The position numbers and the translations under genes are program-made. Positions 2,228-61,877 of a stretch of 64,000 nucleotides of DNA are shown here, one piece after another. How positions within the stretch are numbered: position 1 is the stretch's first letter; each line of letters opens with the position of its first letter. The DNA lies in NCBI GenBank assembly GCA_016716905.1, contig JADJUS010000004.1, positions 326,249 through 390,248 on the forward strand, in the 5' to 3' direction. Source of the DNA: Acidobacteriota bacterium. GTDB lineage: Bacteria > Acidobacteriota > Vicinamibacteria > Vicinamibacterales > SCN-69-37. Under the pieces are notes generated by a model. That model was not told the DNA's origin. It saw only the letters and a program-made list of their open reading frames with translations, and ran no database searches.

Positions 2228-5095
2228 TTAACGCAGAATCGCCGGGACGCCCGCTGTGATCCACGTCGGCGCCGGTTCGCCCTTGAGATAGTGGGCGAAC
2301 CAGGCACCGATGCGGCGATGGTAGTCCACCTGGTTCTTCTTCACCCGCAGGCCGTGGTCTTCGTTGTTGTAGACCAGCATGACCACGTTCTTCTTTGCTC
2401 GCCGTGCGATGTTGTAGAGCTCCACCGACTGGTGCCAGTAGACGGTGCCGTCGTTGTCGCCGGTCATCAGCAACAGGGGCGTGGTCATCGTGGAGATGCC
2501 GAACACGGCTGAGTTCCTGATGTAGGCCTGCAAGTCTTCGTAGAGCGGCACCACCATGCGCTGCTGCCCGGTCTCGATGTGATCGGTCTCGGCGATGCCC
2601 GAACTCCAGTGGCCGTTGCCGTAGTTGCTGATGAGGTTCGAGATGCCCGCGCCCGAGATCGCCGCCGCAAAAATCTTCGAATGCGTCGCCAGATACATGG
2701 CGTCGAACCCACCCCACGAGTGGCCCATCACGCCAACCTTGGCCGCATCCACCACGCCCATGTCGATGACCTTCTTTACCGCAGCCGTGACGCACTCCAC
2801 GACTGAGACGCCGGGCTCGCGTGGCTGAAACACGATGTCGGGCTGGAAGTAGAAGTAGCCCTGCTGCGTGAGGGCAGTACCGTTGTAGTAGCTGCGCTCG
2901 GACGGATTGCTGAACTGGTGCAGGCCGTCCGAAAGCTTTTCGTAGAGGTAGACCACCATCGGGTACTTCTTGCCGGGCTCGTAATTCGCCGGGTAATAGA
3001 GCGAACCCTGGAGCGTCATCTTCGGTTGGCCCTTCGGCTGCACCTCGTAGCTCACCAGTTCCGTACGGCCCCACGCGTACTTCGAGAGGAACGGATTCGT
3101 CGTGGTGACCTGGATGGCCTTTGCCAGGTCGGCGCCGCCGACGAAGAGGTCCGGCGAGTCATCAGACCCCTGAACGGTGTAGCTGAAGACGTCCGCGTTT
3201 TCGGCCTTTGCGAGGCCGGTCACGCTCTTGTCGAGCCAGACCAACTGCGTCACCGCGCCGCCGGCGCCGGAGGTGAAGCGTCCATAGCCCGATTTCTTGG
3301 TGCGCGTGCCGAACAGCGACAGGAAGCCACTCTCAAGATCCACTGGCTCGGCTGGGGCTCCGAAGCCGGCCGCATCGACGCGCAGATAGCGGTGACGCAC
3401 TTGCGACGCTGCGCCCGAGGTGAGTTTCACCGCGGTCTGGCCATCCGGCGACACTTTCCACAAATCGAATGCGTCATTGATCACGACCGACGCATCGTCT
3501 TTCGTCCAGCCGGCAACGCCGAACATGGGCTTCTCGGGGGCGGTGCTGTCGGAGTCCAAATCGACGAAGGACGTCTTCGCGCCTTTCGTGATGTTCGTGA
3601 CCGCCTTGGTGGTGAGGTTGATCGTCCAGTAGTGGCCGCCCTCAGAGTAGATGGCGTACTTGCCGGCAGGGCTGACCTGCAGGCCGCTCGTCGCGCGGGT
3701 CTTGAGAGGTGTGCGTATGCCGGTGGTGAGATCCACCACCTGCACGTCCGATGCCGGCCGTCCGATTGATCGGTCCATCAAGTACGGCGTGAATTCAGAG
3801 ACGATTGCGAGCCTGGTGGCGCGAATGGGTGTGACCTGTTCGTCGAACGTTTTGCCGACCACCACAAGCTGGCCAGTGGCGAGATTCCAGACAGCAGGGA
3901 GGTTGCGACGCCGATCAGCGGCGACGCTCAGCTTCTGCGCGGACATGACGGTGGTGTCGTTCCAGTGCCAGACATCGACGTCCGCTTTTTCCGGGACCGC
4001 GGCCGAGCCCCGGCCGCCCCGGCCTCCTTCGGGTGCCGCCGGCTTCGGCGTCCAGTCGGCCACGCCCAGCAGGATCATCGCGCCGTCATTCGCGCCCGTT
4101 TCGAGCCAAGACGGCCGGCGGAACGTGACGAGGCGCTTCGACATCGGCAGCGCGCCCGCGGTAGGGTCCAGCGTCAGCGCTTTCTCACTCGACTGTCCCA
4201 GCGAGGTCCACGCCATCACCACCTGCGTCGGGCCGTCGTACTTCTCGTTGGTCCTGGATTTCAGCGCGACGAGGTCGGCCGAGTCGTTCCGCCAGGTCAG
4301 ACCCGAGTAGTCCGCCGCGGATGCGTCGAGTGCTCTGAGGACCGACGTTGCGGGGTTGTACAGATGAATGCCGTTGCCCGCCTGGCCTTCGGCACTGATG
4401 ACCATCGCCAGCAGGTGGCCGTTGTCGGAAGGCTGCCACGCGTATTCCGACACGTTGCCGAACGTCGTCGTGGCGCCCGTCTTCAGGTCGCGCACCAACA
4501 AGGTGGTGCCGATGGCTGTTGCGGGCGCGGCCTGCGCGCCTCCACGGCCGCCCGCCGGTGGCGCTGGTGCGGTAGCGGGTGCGCCGCTGGCGGCACCGGC
4601 CGGCGGAGCCGGCGCATAACGTTTCATCGCGATCGACTGGCCGGTGCGATCAAAGGCAAACGACTCGATGCCGTCGATGATGGTCTCAGTCTTTGTGGCG
4701 AGATTGAGCAGGCCCAGCTTGCGCTGAATCGGTTGCCGCGCCGTGCGCAGCCGCTCCTGCTCGGCTTCCGACTGGCCGATGCCGTAGGCCAGCCATTCCG
4801 AGCTCAACGTGAATGACGCTCCCGACCCGAAAGGCACGATGCGCGCGGTGTCTGACGCGGTGGCGCCGGTGGCCGGAATGATCCGGAGTTCGTTGTCCCC
4901 GCCGATGCGCGTAATGCCGTACGCCAGCCACTTGCCGTTTGGAGAAAGACCGCCGCGAGCGGCGCTGGGCGTCACGCTCTCGAACTGGTCGTAATCGGCG
5001 GGCGTGAGCGTGGGTTTGTTCTGGGCAGTGGGAGCGGCCGTTGAGGCCAGAACGAACGCAATAAACGAGGCGGCAATAAACCCGGACCGGCGCAT
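2228..5095 (-). CDS. Secreted S9-family serine peptidase (prolyl oligopeptidase / dipeptidyl peptidase type) with N-terminal beta-propeller region
   Basis: Signal peptide MRRSGFIAASFIAFVLASTAAPTAQ. GHSWGG nucleophile elbow. Later GDNDG and EDHG acid/His motifs. 955 aa. Confidence 0.85.
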   Translation of the reverse strand: MRRSGFIAASFIAFVLASTAAPTAQNKPTLTPADYDQFESVTPSAARGGLSPNGKWLAYGITRIGGDNELRIIPATGATASDTARIVPFGSGASFTLSSEWLAYGIGQSEAEQERLRTARQPIQRKLGLLNLATKTETIIDGIESFAFDRTGQSIAMKRYAPAPPAGAASGAPATAPAPPAGGRGGAQAAPATAIGTTLLVRDLKTGATTTFGNVSEYAWQPSDNGHLLAMVISAEGQAGNGIHLYNPATSVLRALDASAADYSGLTWRNDSADLVALKSRTNEKYDGPTQVVMAWTSLGQSSEKALTLDPTAGALPMSKRLVTFRRPSWLETGANDGAMILLGVADWTPKPAAPEGGRGGRGSAAVPEKADVDVWHWNDTTVMSAQKLSVAADRRRNLPAVWNLATGQLVVVGKTFDEQVTPIRATRLAIVSEFTPYLMDRSIGRPASDVQVVDLTTGIRTPLKTRATSGLQVSPAGKYAIYSEGGHYWTINLTTKAVTNITKGAKTSFVDLDSDSTAPEKPMFGVAGWTKDDASVVINDAFDLWKVSPDGQTAVKLTSGAASQVRHRYLRVDAAGFGAPAEPVDLESGFLSLFGTRTKKSGYGRFTSGAGGAVTQLVWLDKSVTGLAKAENADVFSYTVQGSDDSPDLFVGGADLAKAIQVTTTNPFLSKYAWGRTELVSYEVQPKGQPKMTLQGSLYYPANYEPGKKYPMVVYLYEKLSDGLHQFSNPSERSYYNGTALTQQGYFYFQPDIVFQPREPGVSVVECVTAAVKKVIDMGVVDAAKVGVMGHSWGGFDAMYLATHSKIFAAAISGAGISNLISNYGNGHWSSGIAETDHIETGQQRMVVPLYEDLQAYIRNSAVFGISTMTTPLLLMTGDNDGTVYWHQSVELYNIARRAKKNVVMLVYNNEDHGLRVKKNQVDYHRRIGAWFAHYLKGEPAPTWITAGVPAILR

Positions 5096-16818: not shown

Positions 16819-18549
16819 ATGACCCCCTCCCGTATCCTGCGCCTGGCCCTGCTGATAGCACTAGGTGTGGCGGTGGTCATGTTTGCCCGGCAGTGTGGTA
16901 CCCCACAATCCGGGGCCGATACGGCGCCTCAAACCGGCGGCAAATTGGTGGCCAGTTACCGCACAGAACCCACCCATTTCAACCGTCTCGTGGAGGCGCG
17001 GCCGGGGGCTCGTCTGACGGCGTTACTCACGCAGGCCACCCTGCTCCGCGTGGACCCGAACACAGCAGAGTTGGTGCCGCGCCTTGCCACAGAGTGGACC
17101 GGAACACCCGACGGATTGACGTGGACGATCACCCTTCGCAGTGGCGTACGTTTTTCCGACGGCACGGCCTTCACCGCGTCGGATGTGTTGTTCACATTCC
17201 AGGCGATCTACGACGACCGCGTGAAGAGTCCTCTGGCGCAGGACATGCGCGCCAAAGGCCAGCCCTTCCAGCTGCGCGCCATCGACGATCACCACATCGT
17301 GCTCACCTTCCCCTCCCCGTTCGGACAAGGCCTGGCCATTCTCGATAGCGTGCCTATCCTGCCTCGCCACAAACTCCAGGCAGCGTTTGATGCCGGTACG
17401 TTCCGCGACGCCTGGAGCCCGAGCTCGAATCTCTCGGAGATGGCTGGTCTGGGCCCGTTCATCCTCAAGGAGTACGTGCCTGCGCAGCACCTGCGATTTG
17501 TCAGGAACCCCAACTTCTGGCGCACGGACGCCACTGGACAGAAGCTGCCGTATCTCGACGAACTCGAGGTGCAGATTGTGCCCGAACAAAATGCCGAACT
17601 CCTGCGCCTGCAGTCGGGCACGACAGATCTCACCAACGGCGGTGCGCGCGCGGAAGACCTCGCCATGCTGCGCGATGCGGAAACCGCCGGCCGCGTCAGG
17701 CTCGTTGATGCCGGCCCCGCGATAGACGTCAGCACACTCTGGTTCAATCTCACTCCAGGTTCGAAGGCCGTCGCTGACAAACCCTGGCTGGCGCAGGAGG
17801 CATTTCGCCGTGCGATCTCACACGCGGTGAACCGGCAGGCCATCGTTGACACCGTGCATCTGGGCGCCGCGGTGGTGGTGTATGGCCCGGTGTCACCGGG
17901 CCATGGCGACTGGTTCGTGCCCGATCTTGGAGCCACGCCGTTTGACCTCGCTCGCGCGCTCACGCTCCTCACGTCGATCGGTCTGCAGGATCGCAACGGC
18001 GACGGCGTGCTTGACGACGCGTCCAATCGGCCCGTCGAGTTTTCGCTCTTCACGCAGAGTGGACACACCGAGCGCGAACGCACGAGCACACTCGTGGGCG
18101 AACAGTTGCGCCAGGTCGGCATCAAGGTGAATGTGGTCCCGATGGATCAGCGGGTCGTACAGGCGCGGTTCGGGAGTGGCGACTACGAAGCGATCTACTA
18201 CGGCGCGCAGGCCAGCTCAAAAGACCCGACCAGCAACCGTGGGTTCTGGTTAAGCAATGGCCCCATGCACTTCTGGAACCCCAATCAGCTGACGCCGGGC
18301 TCGGAGTGGGAAGGCCGCATCGACGCGCTCCTGCAGCAGGTGGCCGAGACGATGGACCCTGCCGAACGAAAGCGGCTGTTCACCGAGGCGCAGCAACTCC
18401 TCGCCGACCATGTGCCGGCGCTGTGGTTTGCGGCGCCGCATGTGTCCGTGCCGATGAGTGCGCGGGTGGGCGGAGCGAGGCCAACAGTCATCCAGCCGCC
18501 GGTGTTGTGGAACGCGGAAGAACTGTTCGTCCTGGGTCCGCGTCGGTGA
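16819..18549 (+). CDS. ABC transporter substrate-binding protein, family 5 (Opp/Dpp peptide-binding type)
   Basis: AGGAG 5 nt before ATG 16819. Signal/anchor RILRLALLIALGVAVVMFA. SBP_bac_5-like sequence (LVPRLATEWT..DGLTWTITLR.GVRFSDG). Confidence 0.85.
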   Translation: MTPSRILRLALLIALGVAVVMFARQCGTPQSGADTAPQTGGKLVASYRTEPTHFNRLVEARPGARLTALLTQATLLRVDPNTAELVPRLATEWTGTPDGLTWTITLRSGVRFSDGTAFTASDVLFTFQAIYDDRVKSPLAQDMRAKGQPFQLRAIDDHHIVLTFPSPFGQGLAILDSVPILPRHKLQAAFDAGTFRDAWSPSSNLSEMAGLGPFILKEYVPAQHLRFVRNPNFWRTDATGQKLPYLDELEVQIVPEQNAELLRLQSGTTDLTNGGARAEDLAMLRDAETAGRVRLVDAGPAIDVSTLWFNLTPGSKAVADKPWLAQEAFRRAISHAVNRQAIVDTVHLGAAVVVYGPVSPGHGDWFVPDLGATPFDLARALTLLTSIGLQDRNGDGVLDDASNRPVEFSLFTQSGHTERERTSTLVGEQLRQVGIKVNVVPMDQRVVQARFGSGDYEAIYYGAQASSKDPTSNRGFWLSNGPMHFWNPNQLTPGSEWEGRIDALLQQVAETMDPAERKRLFTEAQQLLADHVPALWFAAPHVSVPMSARVGGARPTVIQPPVLWNAEELFVLGPRR

Positions 18550-29461: not shown

Positions 29462-32284
<2,823 letters not shown>

Positions 32285-45208: not shown

Positions 45209-46618
45209 ATGGTGCATATCATCGGTGGCGGGCTCGCCGGTTGCGAGGCAGCCTGGCAGGCGGCCTCGATGGGCGCGGACGTCACCCTCTACGAAATGCG
45301 GCCGGTGCGGCCGACGGCCGTTCACCAGACCGACGGCCTCGCCGAACTCGTCTGCAGCAATTCGTTTCGCGGCGACAAACTCGACAACGCCGTCGGGCTC
45401 CTCAAGGAGGAGATGCGGCGGCTCGGGTCGATCATCATGCGCATCGCCGACGAGGTGCGTGTGCCGGCCGGCGCAGCACTCGCCGTGGATCGGCATCTCT
45501 TCTCGGAACGCGTGACGGCCGCCATCACGTCACACCCGCGCATTCGCGTTGACCGCCGCGAGATCACACACGTGCCGACGCCGGCCGAGATGTCGCCGGT
45601 CGTTATTGCCACCGGCCCCCTGACATCGGACGCGCTGTCGGCCTCCATCGCGACGTTCCTTGGACGCGAACACCTCGCGTTTTTTGATGCGATCAGCCCG
45701 ATCGTGCTGGCCGAGACCATCGATATGTCGAAGGTCTTTCGGGCGTCGCGCTGGGATCGGTCGCTGCGAGGGCCTGCGCCGGAAACGACCTCAGAGGTCG
45801 TTTCGCCGGCGGTGACCGAAACGACCTCTGAGGTCGTTTCCGGGGGCACGTCCGAAGGTGACTACCTCAACTGTCCCTTCACGAAAGACGAATACGTCGC
45901 CTTCCACCAGGCCATCGTCTCTGCCGAAAAGGCGGAGGTGCACGACTTCGACAACACGAAGTTCTTCGAAGGGTGCCTGCCCATTGAAGTGATGGCGCAC
46001 CGGGGCGTAGATACCTTGCGGTTTGGCCCGATGAAACCCGCCGGACTTGACGACCCGCGCACGGGCCGGTGGCCGTATGCCGTTGTGCAACTGCGGCAGG
46101 ACACACTCGCCGGTGACCACTACAGCCTCGTGGGATTCCAGACGCAGTTGAAGTGGCCGGAACAGAAGCGGGTGTTCGGGATGATTCCGGGACTCGAGCA
46201 CGCCGAGTTTGTGCGGTTCGGCATGATTCACCGGAACACCTACATCAACGGTCCGACCGTGCTGACGAGCACGTGGCAGACCCGCAGGCGTCCGGACCTG
46301 TTCTTCGCCGGGCAGGTATCGGGTGTGGAAGGGTATGTCGAGTCGGCGGCGTCCGGCCTTGTGGCGGGAAGAAATGCGGCGCGCCTGTCGCTGGGACATG
46401 ACCCGGTGGCTCCACCACGCACGACCGCGATCGGGGCGTTGGCCCACTACGTGGCCCACGCTGATCCGGCGCACTACAACCCGACCAACATCACGTTCGG
46501 GATCATCCCCGCGCTCGACGCACCGCCAAAAAGCCGGCATGACCGGAGCATGGCGACAAGCGCGCGTGCCCTGGCCGATCTTGAACCCTGGAGCACGGCT
46601 ACCGCCGGCGGGGTGTGA
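45209..46618 (+). CDS. trmFO: Methylenetetrahydrofolate--tRNA-(uracil-5-)-methyltransferase TrmFO (Gid)
   Basis: IIGGGLAGCEAAWQ FAD motif. ELVCSNSFR. YLNCP. FAGQ.SGVEGY.ES. Confidence 0.93.
   Translation: MVHIIGGGLAGCEAAWQAASMGADVTLYEMRPVRPTAVHQTDGLAELVCSNSFRGDKLDNAVGLLKEEMRRLGSIIMRIADEVRVPAGAALAVDRHLFSERVTAAITSHPRIRVDRREITHVPTPAEMSPVVIATGPLTSDALSASIATFLGREHLAFFDAISPIVLAETIDMSKVFRASRWDRSLRGPAPETTSEVVSPAVTETTSEVVSGGTSEGDYLNCPFTKDEYVAFHQAIVSAEKAEVHDFDNTKFFEGCLPIEVMAHRGVDTLRFGPMKPAGLDDPRTGRWPYAVVQLRQDTLAGDHYSLVGFQTQLKWPEQKRVFGMIPGLEHAEFVRFGMIHRNTYINGPTVLTSTWQTRRRPDLFFAGQVSGVEGYVESAASGLVAGRNAARLSLGHDPVAPPRTTAIGALAHYVAHADPAHYNPTNITFGIIPALDAPPKSRHDRSMATSARALADLEPWSTATAGGV
45782..45840. repeat. Two 23-bp perfect palindromic hairpin elements, mutually inverted, in frame inside trmFO
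   Basis: GAAACGACC-TCAGA-GGTCGTTTC (45782-45804) and GAAACGACC-TCTGA-GGTCGTTTC (45818-45840). Each encodes ETTSEVVS. Confidence 0.9.
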
Positions 46619-47577
46619 TGAGCGTGATGCTGAGGGACGCCACGCGGGAGTTCCTGCAGTTCCTGAAGTTCAACAGGAACGCCTCGCCGCATACGGTGCG
46701 CGCCTACGAGACCGACCTGACCCAGTTTCTCGATTTCCTCAGCGCACGCGACGCGACCAAGCCCAGCAAGGTGCCGGTGACCGCGCTTGACGCCGACGGG
46801 GTGCGCGGGTTCCTCGAATCGCTGCACGATCGCGGCAACAGCCGCGCCTCTGCCGCCCGGCGCCTGGCTGCCTTGCGCACGTTCGCGCGGTACCTGGTGC
46901 GCGAGGGCCGGCTGGCCGACGACCCGACACAGATGGTTGGGGCACCGCGCAAGGAGCAGACCCTGCCCCAACATCTCGACCTGGCGCAGGTGGACAGCGT
47001 GATCGGCACACCCGATCTGGACCGCGCCGCAGGACGGCGAGACCGCGCGATCCTCGAGTTGTTCTACGCGTCCGGTCTGCGGCTCAGTGAGCTGGTGGGG
47101 CTCGATATCGAAGACGTGAATCTCCCCGGTCGCGTGGTCAGGGTACGGGGCAAGGGCGGCAAGGAACGGCTGGTACCGTTTAACCACTCCACAGCCGACG
47201 CGCTCAAAGTGATGCTGCAGGACGCCCGCGCGCTGAAGCCCGAAACGACCTCGCGGCGATCGCGTGGCTCGGGTCCCCACGCGCGGACGCGCCATGCGAT
47301 GTTCCTCAACCTGCGTGGCGGGCGGCTCACCACGCGCAGCGTGGATCGCATTGTGCGTCAGGCGGCGCGGGCGGCGGCAGTACCTGGCGGGCTGAGTCCG
47401 CACGCACTGCGGCACACGTTTGCCACGCACCTGTTGCAGGCCGGAGCCGACCTGAGGGCGATTCAGGAGTTACTGGGTCACGAGCGCCTCAGCACGACGC
47501 AACGGTACACACATCTCGACATCGGCCGGCTGATGGAGGTGTACCGCGCGTCACACCCGCGCGCACGCAAGTCCTGA
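46615..47577 (+). CDS. xerC: Tyrosine site-specific recombinase XerC/XerD family
   Basis: N-terminal SAM-like domain (ASPHTVRAYETDL). Catalytic ELFYASGLRLSEL, HALRHTFATHLL, LLGHERLSTTQRYTH. Confidence 0.9.
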   Translation: MMSVMLRDATREFLQFLKFNRNASPHTVRAYETDLTQFLDFLSARDATKPSKVPVTALDADGVRGFLESLHDRGNSRASAARRLAALRTFARYLVREGRLADDPTQMVGAPRKEQTLPQHLDLAQVDSVIGTPDLDRAAGRRDRAILELFYASGLRLSELVGLDIEDVNLPGRVVRVRGKGGKERLVPFNHSTADALKVMLQDARALKPETTSRRSRGSGPHARTRHAMFLNLRGGRLTTRSVDRIVRQAARAAAVPGGLSPHALRHTFATHLLQAGADLRAIQELLGHERLSTTQRYTHLDIGRLMEVYRASHPRARKS

Positions 47578-50385: not shown

Positions 50386-52368
50386 CTACTCGTCGGGCTG
50401 TTGCAGGGTTTCCCAGCGGTTCATCAGGTCGCCAACCTCCCACATGAGCTGCTTGTGGAGGGCCACGGCGGCTTCGGCCGCCGGCCGGTCGTCGTAGAAG
50501 CCCGGCCCGCTCATTTGGGTCTCGATGTCCCGGATCTTTCCCTCGTGCGCGGCGATACGTTGTTCGAGCTCGTTGACCTTGCCCCGGCGCTCATCATCGG
50601 CCCGGCGGCGCCGCCGGGCATCGGCGTCCGCACGTTTTTTGTGTTCGTAGGACACCGGCGCGGCCACCGGAGCGGGAGCCGCCGGCGCGGTCGGGCTGGC
50701 CTGGGCCTGACGAGCCTTCGACGGAGCAGCGGCCTTGGAGCTGGGGGCGTCAACCGCGGCCTGGCGCTGTTTCTTGCTCCACAGGTATTCCTCGTATGTG
50801 CCCGGATAGACCTCCACCTTTCCGTGGCCGACCGCGATGATCTTCGTTGCCAGACGGTCCACAAAGTAGCGGTCGTGCGACACAAAGATCAGGGTGCCGC
50901 CAAAGGCGGCGAGCGCCTCGAGCAGGACGTCTTTTGAGTCAAGGTCGAGGTGATTGGTCGGTTCGTCGAGCAGCAACGTGTTGGCCGGACGCAGGAGCAT
51001 GCGCGCCACGGCCAGTCGGGTGCGTTCCCCGCCCGACAGGACGCCGGCCTTCTTGTAGATGTCGTCGCCGGCGAACAGAAACCCGCCGAGGAGATTGCGA
51101 ATCATCGGCACCATGTTGATCGGGGCGTCCGATTCCAGCGTCTGGTAGACGGTCTTCACCGGGTCGAGGCGTGTGGCCTCATCCTGGGCGAAGTACTGCT
51201 TCACGACCTGGTGTCCCTCGCGGCAGGAGCCGGAGTCAGGCGCCTCGGCCCCCGACAGCATGCGCATCAGCGTGGACTTGCCCGCGCCGTTTGGCGCGAC
51301 CAGCGCAATGCGATCGCCGCGTTCGATGTGCAGATTGAGGCGATCAAAAACCACCAGGTCGCCGTAAGCCTTGCGCACGTCGGTCAACTCCATCACCATG
51401 CGGCCGCTTTTGGGGCAGCTCGGGAAGGTGAAGTGCACATGCTTCCGCTCGGGTGGGACCTCGATGATCTCGACCTTGTCGAGCATCTTGATCCGGCTCT
51501 GCACCTGGGCCGCCTTGGTGGCCTGGTAGCGGAACCGATCGATGAACGCCTTCATTCGGGCGACCTCATCGTCCTGCTCCTGCTTCGCCTTGCGCAGGCG
51601 GTTCATCCGGGCGTCGTACTCGGTGAGGTAGAACGAATACGTGCCGATGTAATCGGTAATCGTGCGCAGCGACAGGTCAGCGACTTTGGTGACCACTGCG
51701 TCAAGGAAGTACCGGTCGTGCGAGACGAGGATGACCGGATGGGGATAGGCGATCAGGTAGGACTCAAGCCAGTTGCGCGCGTCCAGATCCAAATGGTTCG
51801 TCGGTTCGTCGAGCAGCAGGAGGCCGGGACGGCCCAACAGCAACGTGGCGAGCGCGATGCGCATCTGCCAGCCGCCAGAAAACGTCTCAACAGCCTTGTT
51901 CGCGTCCGAGCGTGCGAAGCCCAGACCATCCAGCACCTGCGTGACTCGGAGGTCGATGCTGTAACCCTCTTCGCGACGGAAAAATTCGCTGAGGTCGTGA
52001 TACCGCTCGAGCAACCGCTCGTGTTCGCCCTCGGGGAGTGTTGGCTCGGCCAGTGCGTGTTCAATGCGCGTCAGTTCCTCGCGCGCGTCGAGCAACGGCC
52101 TGAACGCCTGCGAGACTTCGTCCACCAGAGTCCGACCGGCGTGCGCCAGCCCATCCTGTGGCAGGTAACCGACGGTGAGGCCTGTGGGTCTGACGATGGT
52201 GCCCGAGTCGGGCTCGTCGAGCCCGGCGAGCATCCGCAGGAGCGTGGTTTTGCCCGCGCCATTGGGCCCGCACAGGCCGACGCGATCGCCGTCCGAGACC
52301 TGCCAGGTGACGCGGTCGAGCAGTACACGCTCGCCGAACCGTTTCGTGAGGGCGGAAAGTTGAATCAA
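50386..52368 (-). CDS. ABC-F family ATPase (Uup/YheS/EttA-like translation factor type)
   Basis: Two ABC cassettes (GPNGAGKTT and APNGAGKST, two LSGG signatures), no TM domain. Charged C-terminal coiled region. Confidence 0.9.
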   Translation of the reverse strand: MIQLSALTKRFGERVLLDRVTWQVSDGDRVGLCGPNGAGKTTLLRMLAGLDEPDSGTIVRPTGLTVGYLPQDGLAHAGRTLVDEVSQAFRPLLDAREELTRIEHALAEPTLPEGEHERLLERYHDLSEFFRREEGYSIDLRVTQVLDGLGFARSDANKAVETFSGGWQMRIALATLLLGRPGLLLLDEPTNHLDLDARNWLESYLIAYPHPVILVSHDRYFLDAVVTKVADLSLRTITDYIGTYSFYLTEYDARMNRLRKAKQEQDDEVARMKAFIDRFRYQATKAAQVQSRIKMLDKVEIIEVPPERKHVHFTFPSCPKSGRMVMELTDVRKAYGDLVVFDRLNLHIERGDRIALVAPNGAGKSTLMRMLSGAEAPDSGSCREGHQVVKQYFAQDEATRLDPVKTVYQTLESDAPINMVPMIRNLLGGFLFAGDDIYKKAGVLSGGERTRLAVARMLLRPANTLLLDEPTNHLDLDSKDVLLEALAAFGGTLIFVSHDRYFVDRLATKIIAVGHGKVEVYPGTYEEYLWSKKQRQAAVDAPSSKAAAPSKARQAQASPTAPAAPAPVAAPVSYEHKKRADADARRRRRADDERRGKVNELEQRIAAHEGKIRDIETQMSGPGFYDDRPAAEAAVALHKQLMWEVGDLMNRWETLQQPDE

Positions 52369-60482: not shown

Positions 60483-61877
60483 ATGCCCACTGTCGCATTA
60501 CCTGCACCCGTACTGGCCGGCGGTGCAATGACACCGCGCGAAATCGTCGCCGAGCTCGACAAGTACGTTGTCGGGCAGGCCAAGGCGAAACGCGCGGTGG
60601 CGATCGCCCTTCGCAACCGCCACCGGCGGCAGCGCCTTCCGGCCGAGATGGCCGAGGACGTCGCGCCGAAGAACATCCTGATGATTGGGCCCACCGGCGT
60701 CGGCAAGACCGAGATCGCACGGCGACTGGCCAAGCTCGCGCATTCGCCGTTCCTGAAGATCGAAGCCTCCAAGTTTACCGAGGTGGGGTACGTCGGCCGT
60801 GACGTGGAGTCGATGGTGCGGGACCTGGTGGAAATCGGCGTGAAGCTGGTGCGCGAAGAACGCGAGGCGGAAGTGCGGAGCCGTGCGACGCAGGCGGCCG
60901 AAGAGCGCGTGCTCGACCTGCTTCTGCCGCCGTCCCCGTCGGGCCCCGGATTTGGTGCAGGGTCGCACGAGGAACAACTGGCGCGCGACCAGGTGGTGTC
61001 CACGCGCGAGAAGCTGCGCGAGCAACTGCGCGCCGGCAAACTCGACGGCAAGATGGTCGAGGTTGATGTCGCGCAACGGGCGGCGATGCCGTCGTTTGAG
61101 GTCGTTTCGGGATCATCCGTCGAGGAGATCGGCGTCAACCTGCGCGACATGATGCCGGGGTTGTTTCAGGGCAAGACCCGGCGCCGGCTCCTGCCTGTGT
61201 CTGAGGCGCGTGAGCATCTGGTGCAGGAAGAGACGCAGAAACTGATCGACATGGATGGTGTGGCCCGCGCGGCCATCGAACGCGTCGAGAATTCGGGCAT
61301 CATTTTTCTCGACGAGATCGACAAGATCGCCGGAAAGGACGGCGGTCATGGCCCGGATATCAGCCGCGAGGGCGTGCAACGCGATATCCTGCCCATTGTC
61401 GAAGGCACCACGGTCAGTACGAAACACGGCATGGTCAAGACCGATCACATCCTGTTCATTGCCGCCGGCGCGTTTCACGTGTCGAAGCCGTCGGACCTGA
61501 TTCCCGAACTGCAGGGCCGGTTCCCCATTCGCGTGGAACTCGAGGCGCTGGGCCGCGACGAGTTCATCCGCATCCTGACCGAGCCGCGCAACGCCCTGAT
61601 CAAGCAGTACATGGCGCTGATGCTGACCGAGGGGCTGCGGCTGGAGTTCACACCCGAGGCCATTGCGCGCGTCGCCGAACTGGCCACCCTCGTGAACGAC
61701 CGCACAGAAAATATCGGCGCACGCCGCCTGCACACGGTACTTGAGCGCTTGCTCGACGACGTGTCATTTCATGCACCCGAACTGGACGGCCAATCGATTA
61801 CGATCGACCCGGCCTATGTGGATCGCATGCTTGCCGATATAGCGAAGAGCGACGACCTGTCGCGGTACATCCTGTGA
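60483..61877 (+). CDS. hslU: ATP-dependent protease ATPase subunit HslU
   Basis: [53 protein letters not shown]. Confidence 0.96.

Follow-up and report, generated by a model that had tools for sequence, protein, structure and literature searches.

The coding sequence of trmFO in a 64,000-nt stretch of acidobacterial DNA (assembly GCA_016716905.1, contig JADJUS010000004.1, positions 326,249 to 390,248; hereafter the window, by which we always mean the whole stretch) contains two perfect 23-nt palindromes, placed 13 nt apart, that are exact reverse complements of each other. The question raised by this locus is where so symmetric a sequence inside a protein-coding gene comes from, and how it can persist there. 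We consider it likely that the trmFO doublet formed by the two palindromes is a member of a dispersed family of repetitive extragenic palindromic (REP)-like sequences, arranged as in REP doublets forming hairpins (REPINs) and in bacterial interspersed mosaic elements (BIMEs), and that it lies in a permissive loop of the protein, most probably as non-coding selfish DNA.

The trmFO doublet and its host loop

An earlier note on this DNA had reported two mutually inverted perfect palindromes in frame in trmFO, both translated as ETTSEVVS, and this was confirmed (Table 1). Precisely, each 23-mer is an 11 + 1 + 11 palindrome, effectively a 9-bp stem with a 5-nt loop. The pattern was absent from all of 100 dinucleotide-preserving shuffles, even when three mismatches were allowed. 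The earlier note had overlooked that the inverted symmetry exceeds the 23-mers: the arms are complementary over 27 nt around an 11-nt spacer, hence the unit is one long hairpin of 65 nt. The predicted fold of this hairpin has an energy of -38.3 kcal/mol (z = -9.4) as single-stranded DNA and of -59.8 kcal/mol (z = -8.0) as RNA. An open reading frame (ORF) on the opposite strand (45322..45849, -) is open through the doublet and gives ETTSEVVS too, because the unit is a palindrome.

Perfect palindromes with a stem of at least 9 nt number five in the window, and the two units are among them. The other three have stems of 10-11 nt and occur once each (ATGGCCCGGTGTCACCGGGCCAT at 17882-17904, TCGAGGACGAGATCGTCCTCGA at 30024-30045 and GCCCGGCGGCGCCGCCGGGC at 50600-50619).

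The protein encoded by the host gene matches Thermus thermophilus TrmFO (3G5Q) with E = 9e-135. Its phmmer alignment to 3G5Q places residues 185 and 216 on the same chain residue, 183, and leaves 186-215 unmatched, which bears out the earlier remark that known TrmFO sequences are short at the site of the palindromes. In an alignment of 25 acidobacterial orthologs the same segment ranges from 0 to about 100 amino acids (aa), the rest of the protein being 76-99% identical. Judging from these alignments, residues 186-215 are a permissive loop specific to the lineage, and the gap in 3G5Q together with the variable length suggests that the loop is exposed to the solvent. An AlphaFold2 model built on an alignment of 25 sequences had a mean predicted local distance difference test score of 55.6, with values below 50 over residues 153-315, and was not used for placing the loop.

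Table 1. Positions in the window of trmFO, of its variable loop and of the parts of the doublet.
Feature	Position	Strand	Remarks
trmFO CDS, host gene	45209..46618	+	469 aa; 100% identical to P0001 = MBK9239725.1, annotated TrmFO
Lineage-specific loop LRGPAPETTSEVVSPAVTETTSEVVSGGTS, residues 186-215	45764..45853	+	no counterpart in 3G5Q; hypervariable in acidobacterial orthologs
Whole REPIN-like doublet	45779..45843	.	27-nt arm + 11-nt spacer + 27-nt arm, 65 nt; single long hairpin possible
Left arm CCGGAAACGACCTCAGAGGTCGTTTCG	45779..45805	.	27 nt; 100% complementary to right arm
Palindromic unit 1, GAAACGACCTCAGAGGTCGTTTC	45782..45804	.	type T1; central A; read ETTSEVVS
Spacer CCGGCGGTGAC	45806..45816	.	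part of PAVT; locus-specific; only the ortholog L042 has the same spacer
Right arm CGAAACGACCTCTGAGGTCGTTTCCGG	45817..45843	.	27 nt; 100% complementary to left arm
Palindromic unit 2, GAAACGACCTCTGAGGTCGTTTC	45818..45840	.	type T1; central T; read ETTSEVVS

Dispersal of the repeat

The motif of the two units, here called type T1 (motif form GAAACGACCTCWGAGGTCGTTTC), is not restricted to trmFO. The exact 23-mer was found at 35 other loci in public genome and metagenome collections, where no chance match is expected. It is present in nine stretches of species-representative genomes and in 27 metagenome stretches; the nine come from metagenome-assembled genomes (MAGs) labelled Solibacteraceae, from an acidobacterial MAG of Lake Baikal and from one Pirellulaceae MAG (taxonomic labels such as Solibacteraceae, Vicinamibacterales or 'Acidobacteria bacterium' are those of the source records). 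All but one of the 36 fetched loci are in contigs of about 62-71% GC, similar in composition to the window. The MAG CAZAZR01 holds at least five loci with nine copies of the 23-mer, and a single contig of 9.3 kb (L028) holds three T1 doublets.

In this small and biased sample, in-frame copies occur in at least eight unrelated protein families, at least seven of them besides TrmFO and inside Pfam domains. The hosts confirmed with Pfam are MutS2, ApbE, DUF72, several Ser/Thr kinases (Pkinase), a penicillin-binding protein transpeptidase, SelA and GluQRS, and the doublets encode 20-21 aa. Other T1 sites are the C-terminus of NuoM, the junction between MeaB and methylmalonyl-CoA epimerase, 5′ regions and intergenic DNA; relative to genes, T1 occurs on either strand. 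The idea of a mobile palindrome tolerated in frame, similar to the Rickettsia palindromic elements (RPEs), thus gained from the dispersal and from the number of host families, and was corrected in that the trmFO element is one inverted doublet rather than two independent palindromes.

Some of these loci deserve a separate mention. The T1 doublet between meaB and the epimerase gene lies in a continuous open frame over both genes (L005 3732-5687; L029, minus strand, 535-aa ORF), which may be a repeat-mediated gene fusion or a mere open intergenic stretch. The only match outside Acidobacteria among the high-GC loci is a single exact T1 in the Pirellulaceae (Planctomycetes) MAG (L009 7141-7163), directly after a terminator-like hairpin and a T-run. 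The contig of L027 terminates in a T1 unit with reverse-complement flanks (gaatcgag...ctcgattc, 3050-3115) and looks like an assembly fold-back. Finally, one match was treated as unrelated to the acidobacterial family: on a contig of 41% GC from a different organism (L016) the 23-mer is extended to a 29-nt hairpin, AACGAAACGACCTCTGAGGTCGTTTCGTT (566-588 and 1440-1462), within an intergenic block (150 nt or more) that is present twice at a distance of 874 nt and has a T-run after it.

Types of the repeat and turnover at orthologous sites

The consensus unit of the family is CGGA-AACGACCTC-N-GAGGTCGTT-TCCG, in which the initial CGGA belongs to the majority consensus of the types T1 to T3 and not to every copy. 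The three types were recognised by comparing the DNA of eleven trmFO orthologs. T1 (GGAAACGACCTCAGAGGTCGTTTCC) is found in trmFO of the window, L010, L042, L037 and L038. T2 (GGAAATGAGCTCGGAGGCGATTTCC and its complement, 23-mer form GAAATGAGCTCGGAGGCGATTTC) encodes EMSSEAIS / EIASELIS and is found in L040, L041 and L039, with single arms in L045 and L046. T3 (GGAAATGACGTCGGGTGCCTTTTCC and its complement, also given as GAAATGACGTCGGGTGCCTTTTC) encodes EMTSGVFS / EKTPDVIS and is found in L043 and L044. In the orthologs with two octapeptides the arms are near-perfect reverse complements, with 0-2 mismatches over 17-38 nt and loops of 10-14 nt. The arms of T2 and T3 are not self-palindromic beyond GGAAA...TTTCC, hence the conserved feature is the long hairpin between the arms and not the small hairpins. 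No ortholog had a peptide of the ETTSEVVS type without symmetry in its DNA: the related octapeptides are encoded by inverted-repeat doublets or, in L045 and L046, by one decayed arm.

The state of the element changes over short distances. The trmFO of L010, which is 98% identical to that of the window (divergence at 4-fold sites 0.018), has a single unit, CCGGAAACGACCTCAGAGGTCGTTTCCGG; the difference is an indel of 36 nt, the exact product expected from a deletion or recombination between the two units of the window. Each allele, the one of 469 aa and the one of 457 aa, was met again in independent assemblies (clusters of 10 and 5 members). As the single unit is found in a near-identical gene and both alleles recur, the change from doublet to singlet must be recent and ongoing. 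At a divergence of 0.42, the window and L042 still have a common spacer (one difference in 11 positions), and in their 20-bp stem three pairs have changed with compensation and one without; between these two genes the pairing is maintained in place and the rate of change is below neutral.

Other pairs of orthologs differ in type. The window (T1) is separated from L041 and L040 (T2) by divergences of 0.20 and 0.30, respectively, and the spacers are unrelated; L038 (T1) and L039 (T2) differ in type at 0.26, while L038 and the window both carry T1 at 0.61. The type does not follow the tree of the host gene, which means that the element at the trmFO site has been replaced or re-acquired. At the DUF72 site the orthologs carry T1, T2, T3 or a fourth inverted pair, and the loop of distant homologs is unrelated, though of similar length. 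The genome of L039, with T2 in trmFO, has the exact T2 23-mer with a 4-nt spacer in its DUF72 gene as well (L047). The fourth inverted pair at the DUF72 site belongs to a longer family seen in protein sequences (P0137, P0138, P0161, P0164, P0165, P0167, P0172), with the pattern RGTGVFSTE(I/T)A..GTGL....RPVP..(I/V)SVENTPVP, in which GTGVFS and ENTPVP are reverse-complement readings.

Further palindromic repeats were observed on the same contigs. Doublets of the T3 type (GGAAAAGACGTCGGGTGTCTTTTCC and its reverse complement) lie at loci other than trmFO (L034 1424-1488, L007 7082-7155 and L029 3775-3835), in each case on one contig together with a T1 doublet. GTAG-tagged REP doublets (GTAGGGCGTGGCTTTAGCCGCGCC ... 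reverse complement), encoding VGRGFSRADPGVDGAAKATPY, lie in frame in Ser/Thr kinases that also bear T1 (L012 2407-2469; L011 1234-1257 and 4080-4133; L019 762-785), hence several REP families are tolerated within genes in these genomes. A further family of GTAG-REPs (GTAGCGCGGCCTGAACCTCAAGGCCGCG) forms inverted intergenic doublets on T1-bearing contigs and in the T2 genome (L029 248-383, L031 2723-2792 and L047 15492-15519).

A turnover of this kind could also come from recombination, if the repeat were an uptake-type or recognition sequence, similar to the 'dialects' of DNA uptake sequences (DUS) and uptake signal sequences (USS), or if it overwrote tolerant loops by gene conversion. In this case we would understand why the trmFO and DUF72 sites hold different types in different genomes, with T2 at both sites in one genome, why the DUF72 and kinase segments swap for loops of similar length, and why neither a target-site duplication nor a conserved flank is visible. 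However, the density is far too low for such a signal, with a single doublet in the 64 kb of the window and one per 20 kb in the eight relatives compared; the strict geometry of inverted doublets with Watson-Crick arms is not needed by uptake signals; and the presence of T1 and T3 on single contigs (L007, L029, L034) shows that the rule of one dialect per genome is not strict. We regard a spread by uptake or gene conversion as unlikely.

Symmetry at the DNA level

We considered 15 aligned doublets in order to compare the long helix between the arms with the two local hairpins. The long helix is 92% paired, 15 of its 27 pairs are changed on both sides, and its covariation score is 0.39, against 0.12 in shuffles; the score of the two local hairpins, 0.15, is far below it. 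Of 395 cells, about 4 hold G-U pairs, and the rare mismatches are G-A, C-C or G-T. Since the pairing is Watson-Crick with nearly no G-U, the symmetry points to DNA and not to RNA as the level at which it is kept.

This bears on the possibility that the doublet is a functional hairpin of trmFO, either an mRNA structure (a ribosome pause, an RNase III site or a stability element) or a DNA cruciform regulating trmFO or the downstream xerC. The very stable predicted RNA fold would suit such a role, as would the 27-bp perfect duplex, which suffices for RNase III, and the arm pairing retained, with compensated changes, in all eight doublet-bearing orthologs. Against it, besides the rarity of G-U pairs, there are the identical units outside trmFO, in genes unrelated to it, on both strands and in intergenic DNA, and the loss of half the element in a strain 98% identical (L010) and of all but one decayed arm in L045 and L046. 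In addition, a scan at the doublet found neither a terminator-like tail nor a promoter, and Rfam 15 gave nothing above its gathering scores, the only hits being generic long-hairpin models of miRNA precursors with at most 33 bits against cut-offs of 60-105. A regulatory hairpin is, in our opinion, quite unlikely.

Formation of the doublets

Seventeen non-redundant doublets were collected, with a spacing between units of 13-19 nt and an element length of 59-66 nt; single units exist besides them. Spacers of non-homologous loci have no sequence in common. Sixteen of the 17 doublets have complementary central bases in their two units (A..T or T..A), and the complementarity of the arms typically extends 1-3 nt past the 23-mer into bases that are specific to the locus (CA/TG, GT/AC, GGC/GCC and, in the window, CCG/CGG). 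No direct duplication flanks the elements, the flanks being inverted instead. As the spacers are not conserved and the paired flanks are specific to the locus, the doublets were probably not copied as whole units. Speculatively, the first arm and a few flanking bases could be copied on the spot, as their reverse complement, to give the second arm; as an alternative, equally speculative, two units could be deposited at a fixed distance.

The same features might suggest that the palindromes arose locally and are unrelated to other repeats, a fast-evolving loop having produced them through template switching or fold-back synthesis. In fact, an in-place inverted duplication would take in locus-specific flanking bases exactly as is seen, the changes between doublet and singlet clearly occur in place, and the mechanism may well generate the second arm. 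Nevertheless, a local origin does not account for 35 further loci with the identical 23-mer, nor for its presence in at least eight unrelated families, and we judge it very unlikely on the whole: it is excluded as a full explanation and is possible only as the step that turns single units into doublets.

Reading frame and encoded peptide

Each intragenic event includes one or more units in the frame of ETTSEVVS, and only two units are read in another frame, as NDLRGRF in ApbE and as KRPQRSF in GluQRS. The T-centred orientation contains TGA in one frame, as read from the sequence, and that combination cannot persist in a gene. A word-indexed protein search with the concatenated ETTSEVVS peptide gave no match, and an exhaustive phmmer search with the 30-aa loop gave one unrelated Thr/Ser-rich repeat protein only.

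That ETTSEVVS is a protein-level module selected for TrmFO function (for example a phosphorylation or tRNA-contact motif), with the palindrome as an incidental by-product, is barely credible in spite of the strong preference for its frame in intragenic copies, since the loop is missing in Thermus TrmFO and ranges from 0 to about 100 aa in close orthologs, which may hold the unrelated peptides of T2 or T3, other frames are used in ApbE and GluQRS and other copies are intergenic, and no peptide can account for arms that are perfect reverse complements even at a central base whose change is synonymous.

Neighbouring features

In the window trmFO and xerC abut (46615-46618). In L043 (11421-12016) and L044 (11510-12138) they are separated by an RHH-PIN toxin-antitoxin pair, which is absent from the window. 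Two half-sites, GAAACGACCTC, at 47242-47252 (in xerC, read PETTS) and 61098-61108 (in another ORF), have no partner arm and were rejected as chance occurrences; in the XerC alignment the region of PETTS is a variable segment of the usual kind.

Proposed mechanism

We propose that the trmFO doublet belongs to a selfish repeat that would spread, or be renewed, at the DNA level by means of its hairpin form. By analogy with REPs and with the hairpins linked to Y1 transposases in Acidobacteria, a trans-acting HUH-Y1 enzyme, similar to the REP-associated tyrosine transposase (RAYT) or to TnpA-Y1, might act on the single-stranded hairpin. Its persistence in trmFO could be favoured by two circumstances: the unit is free of stop codons in frame and encodes one polar peptide of eight residues, ETTSEVVS, whichever strand is read, and the loop seems to tolerate almost any sequence and length. 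The peptide is presumably neutral for TrmFO. A perfect 27-bp RNA duplex is long enough to be a substrate of RNase III and, as such a duplex inside an ORF would be expected to be cut, the element may carry a cost.

Several observations weigh against the interpretation of the trmFO doublet as a copy of a REP-like selfish family, and we list them together. In the part of this genome that was covered, the 64-kb window, there is no T1 copy besides this doublet, and in each of eight relatives the syntenic 20 kb contain the trmFO copy alone. The loci from other genomes were fetched because they bear the motif, which biases their copy densities upward: they show dispersal and not density. The GTAG/CTAC and CGTC/GACG feet are absent from the T1 unit and its conserved flanks, and if REPINs were copied and pasted as a whole, their spacers would not be expected to differ between copies as they do. 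In DUF72 and in the kinases the segment encoded by the repeat replaces a loop of similar length with no simple lengthening, so that a simple insertion is only one possibility at those sites. Lastly, a tblastn search for Y1 transposases, with IS200 TnpA and E. coli RAYT as the only queries, gave nothing with E < 0.1 in about 400 kb, which is a tiny sample. An empty-site comparison was also sought, and no other T1-bearing locus has an ortholog in the window.

A wider reading is possible, though we hold it only tentatively. T1, T2 and T3 may be members of an undescribed REPIN-like superfamily of Vicinamibacteria-type Acidobacteria, defined by GGAAA-N15-TTTCC and by the lack of a GTAG/CGTC foot, which would repeatedly re-occupy the same tolerant loops of housekeeping proteins, such as those of TrmFO and DUF72, with dialects matched to the genome and with fresh spacers. 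If so, there would be either a directed replacement or homing onto resident elements, or a genome-wide homogenisation by a cognate enzyme, and the step forming the doublets would copy the first arm plus a few flanking bases. No report of repeated re-occupation of the same site by REPINs was found in the REPIN literature that we examined.

As regards its significance, the trmFO case adds a third setting for palindromic selfish DNA written into proteins, that of free-living Acidobacteria of soil, freshwater and sludge. The ortholog series of trmFO and DUF72 offer a natural time-course, from doublet to singlet, to decayed arm and to replacement by another type, on which the birth, the upkeep of symmetry and the renewal of REP-like elements can be tested, as well as whether they create loop diversity. 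From a practical point of view, hairpins of this kind break assemblies (as in L027), inflate the apparent divergence of proteins and can mislead annotation based on alignments.

Comparison with known systems

The closest likeness is with the REP/BIME/REPIN sequences mobilised with RAYT (TnpA-REP). They share with T1 a short palindromic unit (20-40 nt) present at many loci, which for T1 are those of related genomes, and inverted doublets with a short spacer that form one long hairpin. The T1 single units resemble collapsed doublets, comparable to the 'double-foot' REPs that derive from the central deletion of a REP dimer in a work that also describes in-frame REPs in loops (PMC6006769). REPINs, too, come in several sequence types per lineage, each with a dominant 'master' (10.1101/2021.07.10.451892). 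T1 differs from them in having no GT[AG]G or CGTC foot, although the GTAG-REPs in the same loci are easily recognised; in being a perfect palindrome whose orientation is marked by the central base only; in its spacers; and in location, as about half of the T1 sites in our small, biased sample are inside genes and not predominantly extragenic. In addition, no RAYT was found in about 400 kb searched with IS200 TnpA and E. coli RAYT queries.

In-frame REP dimers of 20-30 aa have been described in housekeeping, DNA-repair and tRNA-related enzymes of free-living bacteria (Di Nocera et al. 2013, PMC3733652), and T1 in TrmFO, MutS2, SelA and GluQRS recalls them. T1 is a different sequence family, with no GTAG/CGTC tag, and its acidobacterial hosts are not among the species listed in the sections of that article on which we draw; nor do those sections report the recurrent occupation of one orthologous site by different types. 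Considering these dimers and the Y1-linked hairpins of Acidobacteria (PMC6006769), the earlier opinion that the repeat is unexpected in this kind of genome was overstated.

The RPEs are also palindromic repeats inserted in frame at tolerant positions of functional proteins, and RPE-4 and RPE-6 are CGTC-tagged, according to the same sections (PMC3733652). The T1 unit measures 23-27 nt, has no CGTC tag and comes from an acidobacterial MAG, whereas the host of RPEs is an obligate intracellular alphaproteobacterium; there is no sequence relationship, and T1 falls outside the Rickettsia RPE families. Elements of RPE-1 are longer, about 100-150 bp.

Quentin et al. (2018, PMC6006769) described hairpins that flank class 3 TnpA-Y1 genes in Acidobacteria and Planctomycetes; their 5′ foot is CnGA, and Solibacter usitatus has about 600 copies. 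They resemble our repeat in being REP-like without GTAG and in belonging to the same phyla. The T1-T3 consensus starts with CGGA, and one exact T1 is in a Pirellulaceae MAG. On the other hand, the S. usitatus hairpins, CCGAGCCGCGACTGTCAAGGAGCGGTTG, are unrelated in sequence, CnGA is not present at every T1 copy, and no class 3 Y1 gene was found near any T1 copy in the same tblastn search (about 400 kb, with IS200 TnpA and E. coli RAYT queries).

Other systems are more distant. The coding palindromes of Nematomorpha mitochondria are perfect inverted repeats in genes with both arms translated; they are up to 284 bp long, mitochondrial and, in the sections of the article considered here, not described as a dispersed family of short repeats (PMC6649704). 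Miniature inverted-repeat transposable elements measure 70-300 bp, with terminal inverted repeats and a target-site duplication, against 59-66 nt and no direct duplication for T1. DUS and USS are signals of 9-12 nt occurring about once per kb, and T1 is a 23-nt unit in hairpin doublets, one per 64 kb here.

The phenomenon itself, selfish palindromic DNA inside genes, is thus known in other bacteria, and the trmFO case is a new and somewhat unusual example of it. What is particular here is the lack of a GTAG/CGTC foot, the perfect palindrome that gives the same peptide on both strands, the unconserved spacers, the high intragenic share among the sampled copies, and the fact that the same loops have been repeatedly taken by different types, partly matched to the genome.

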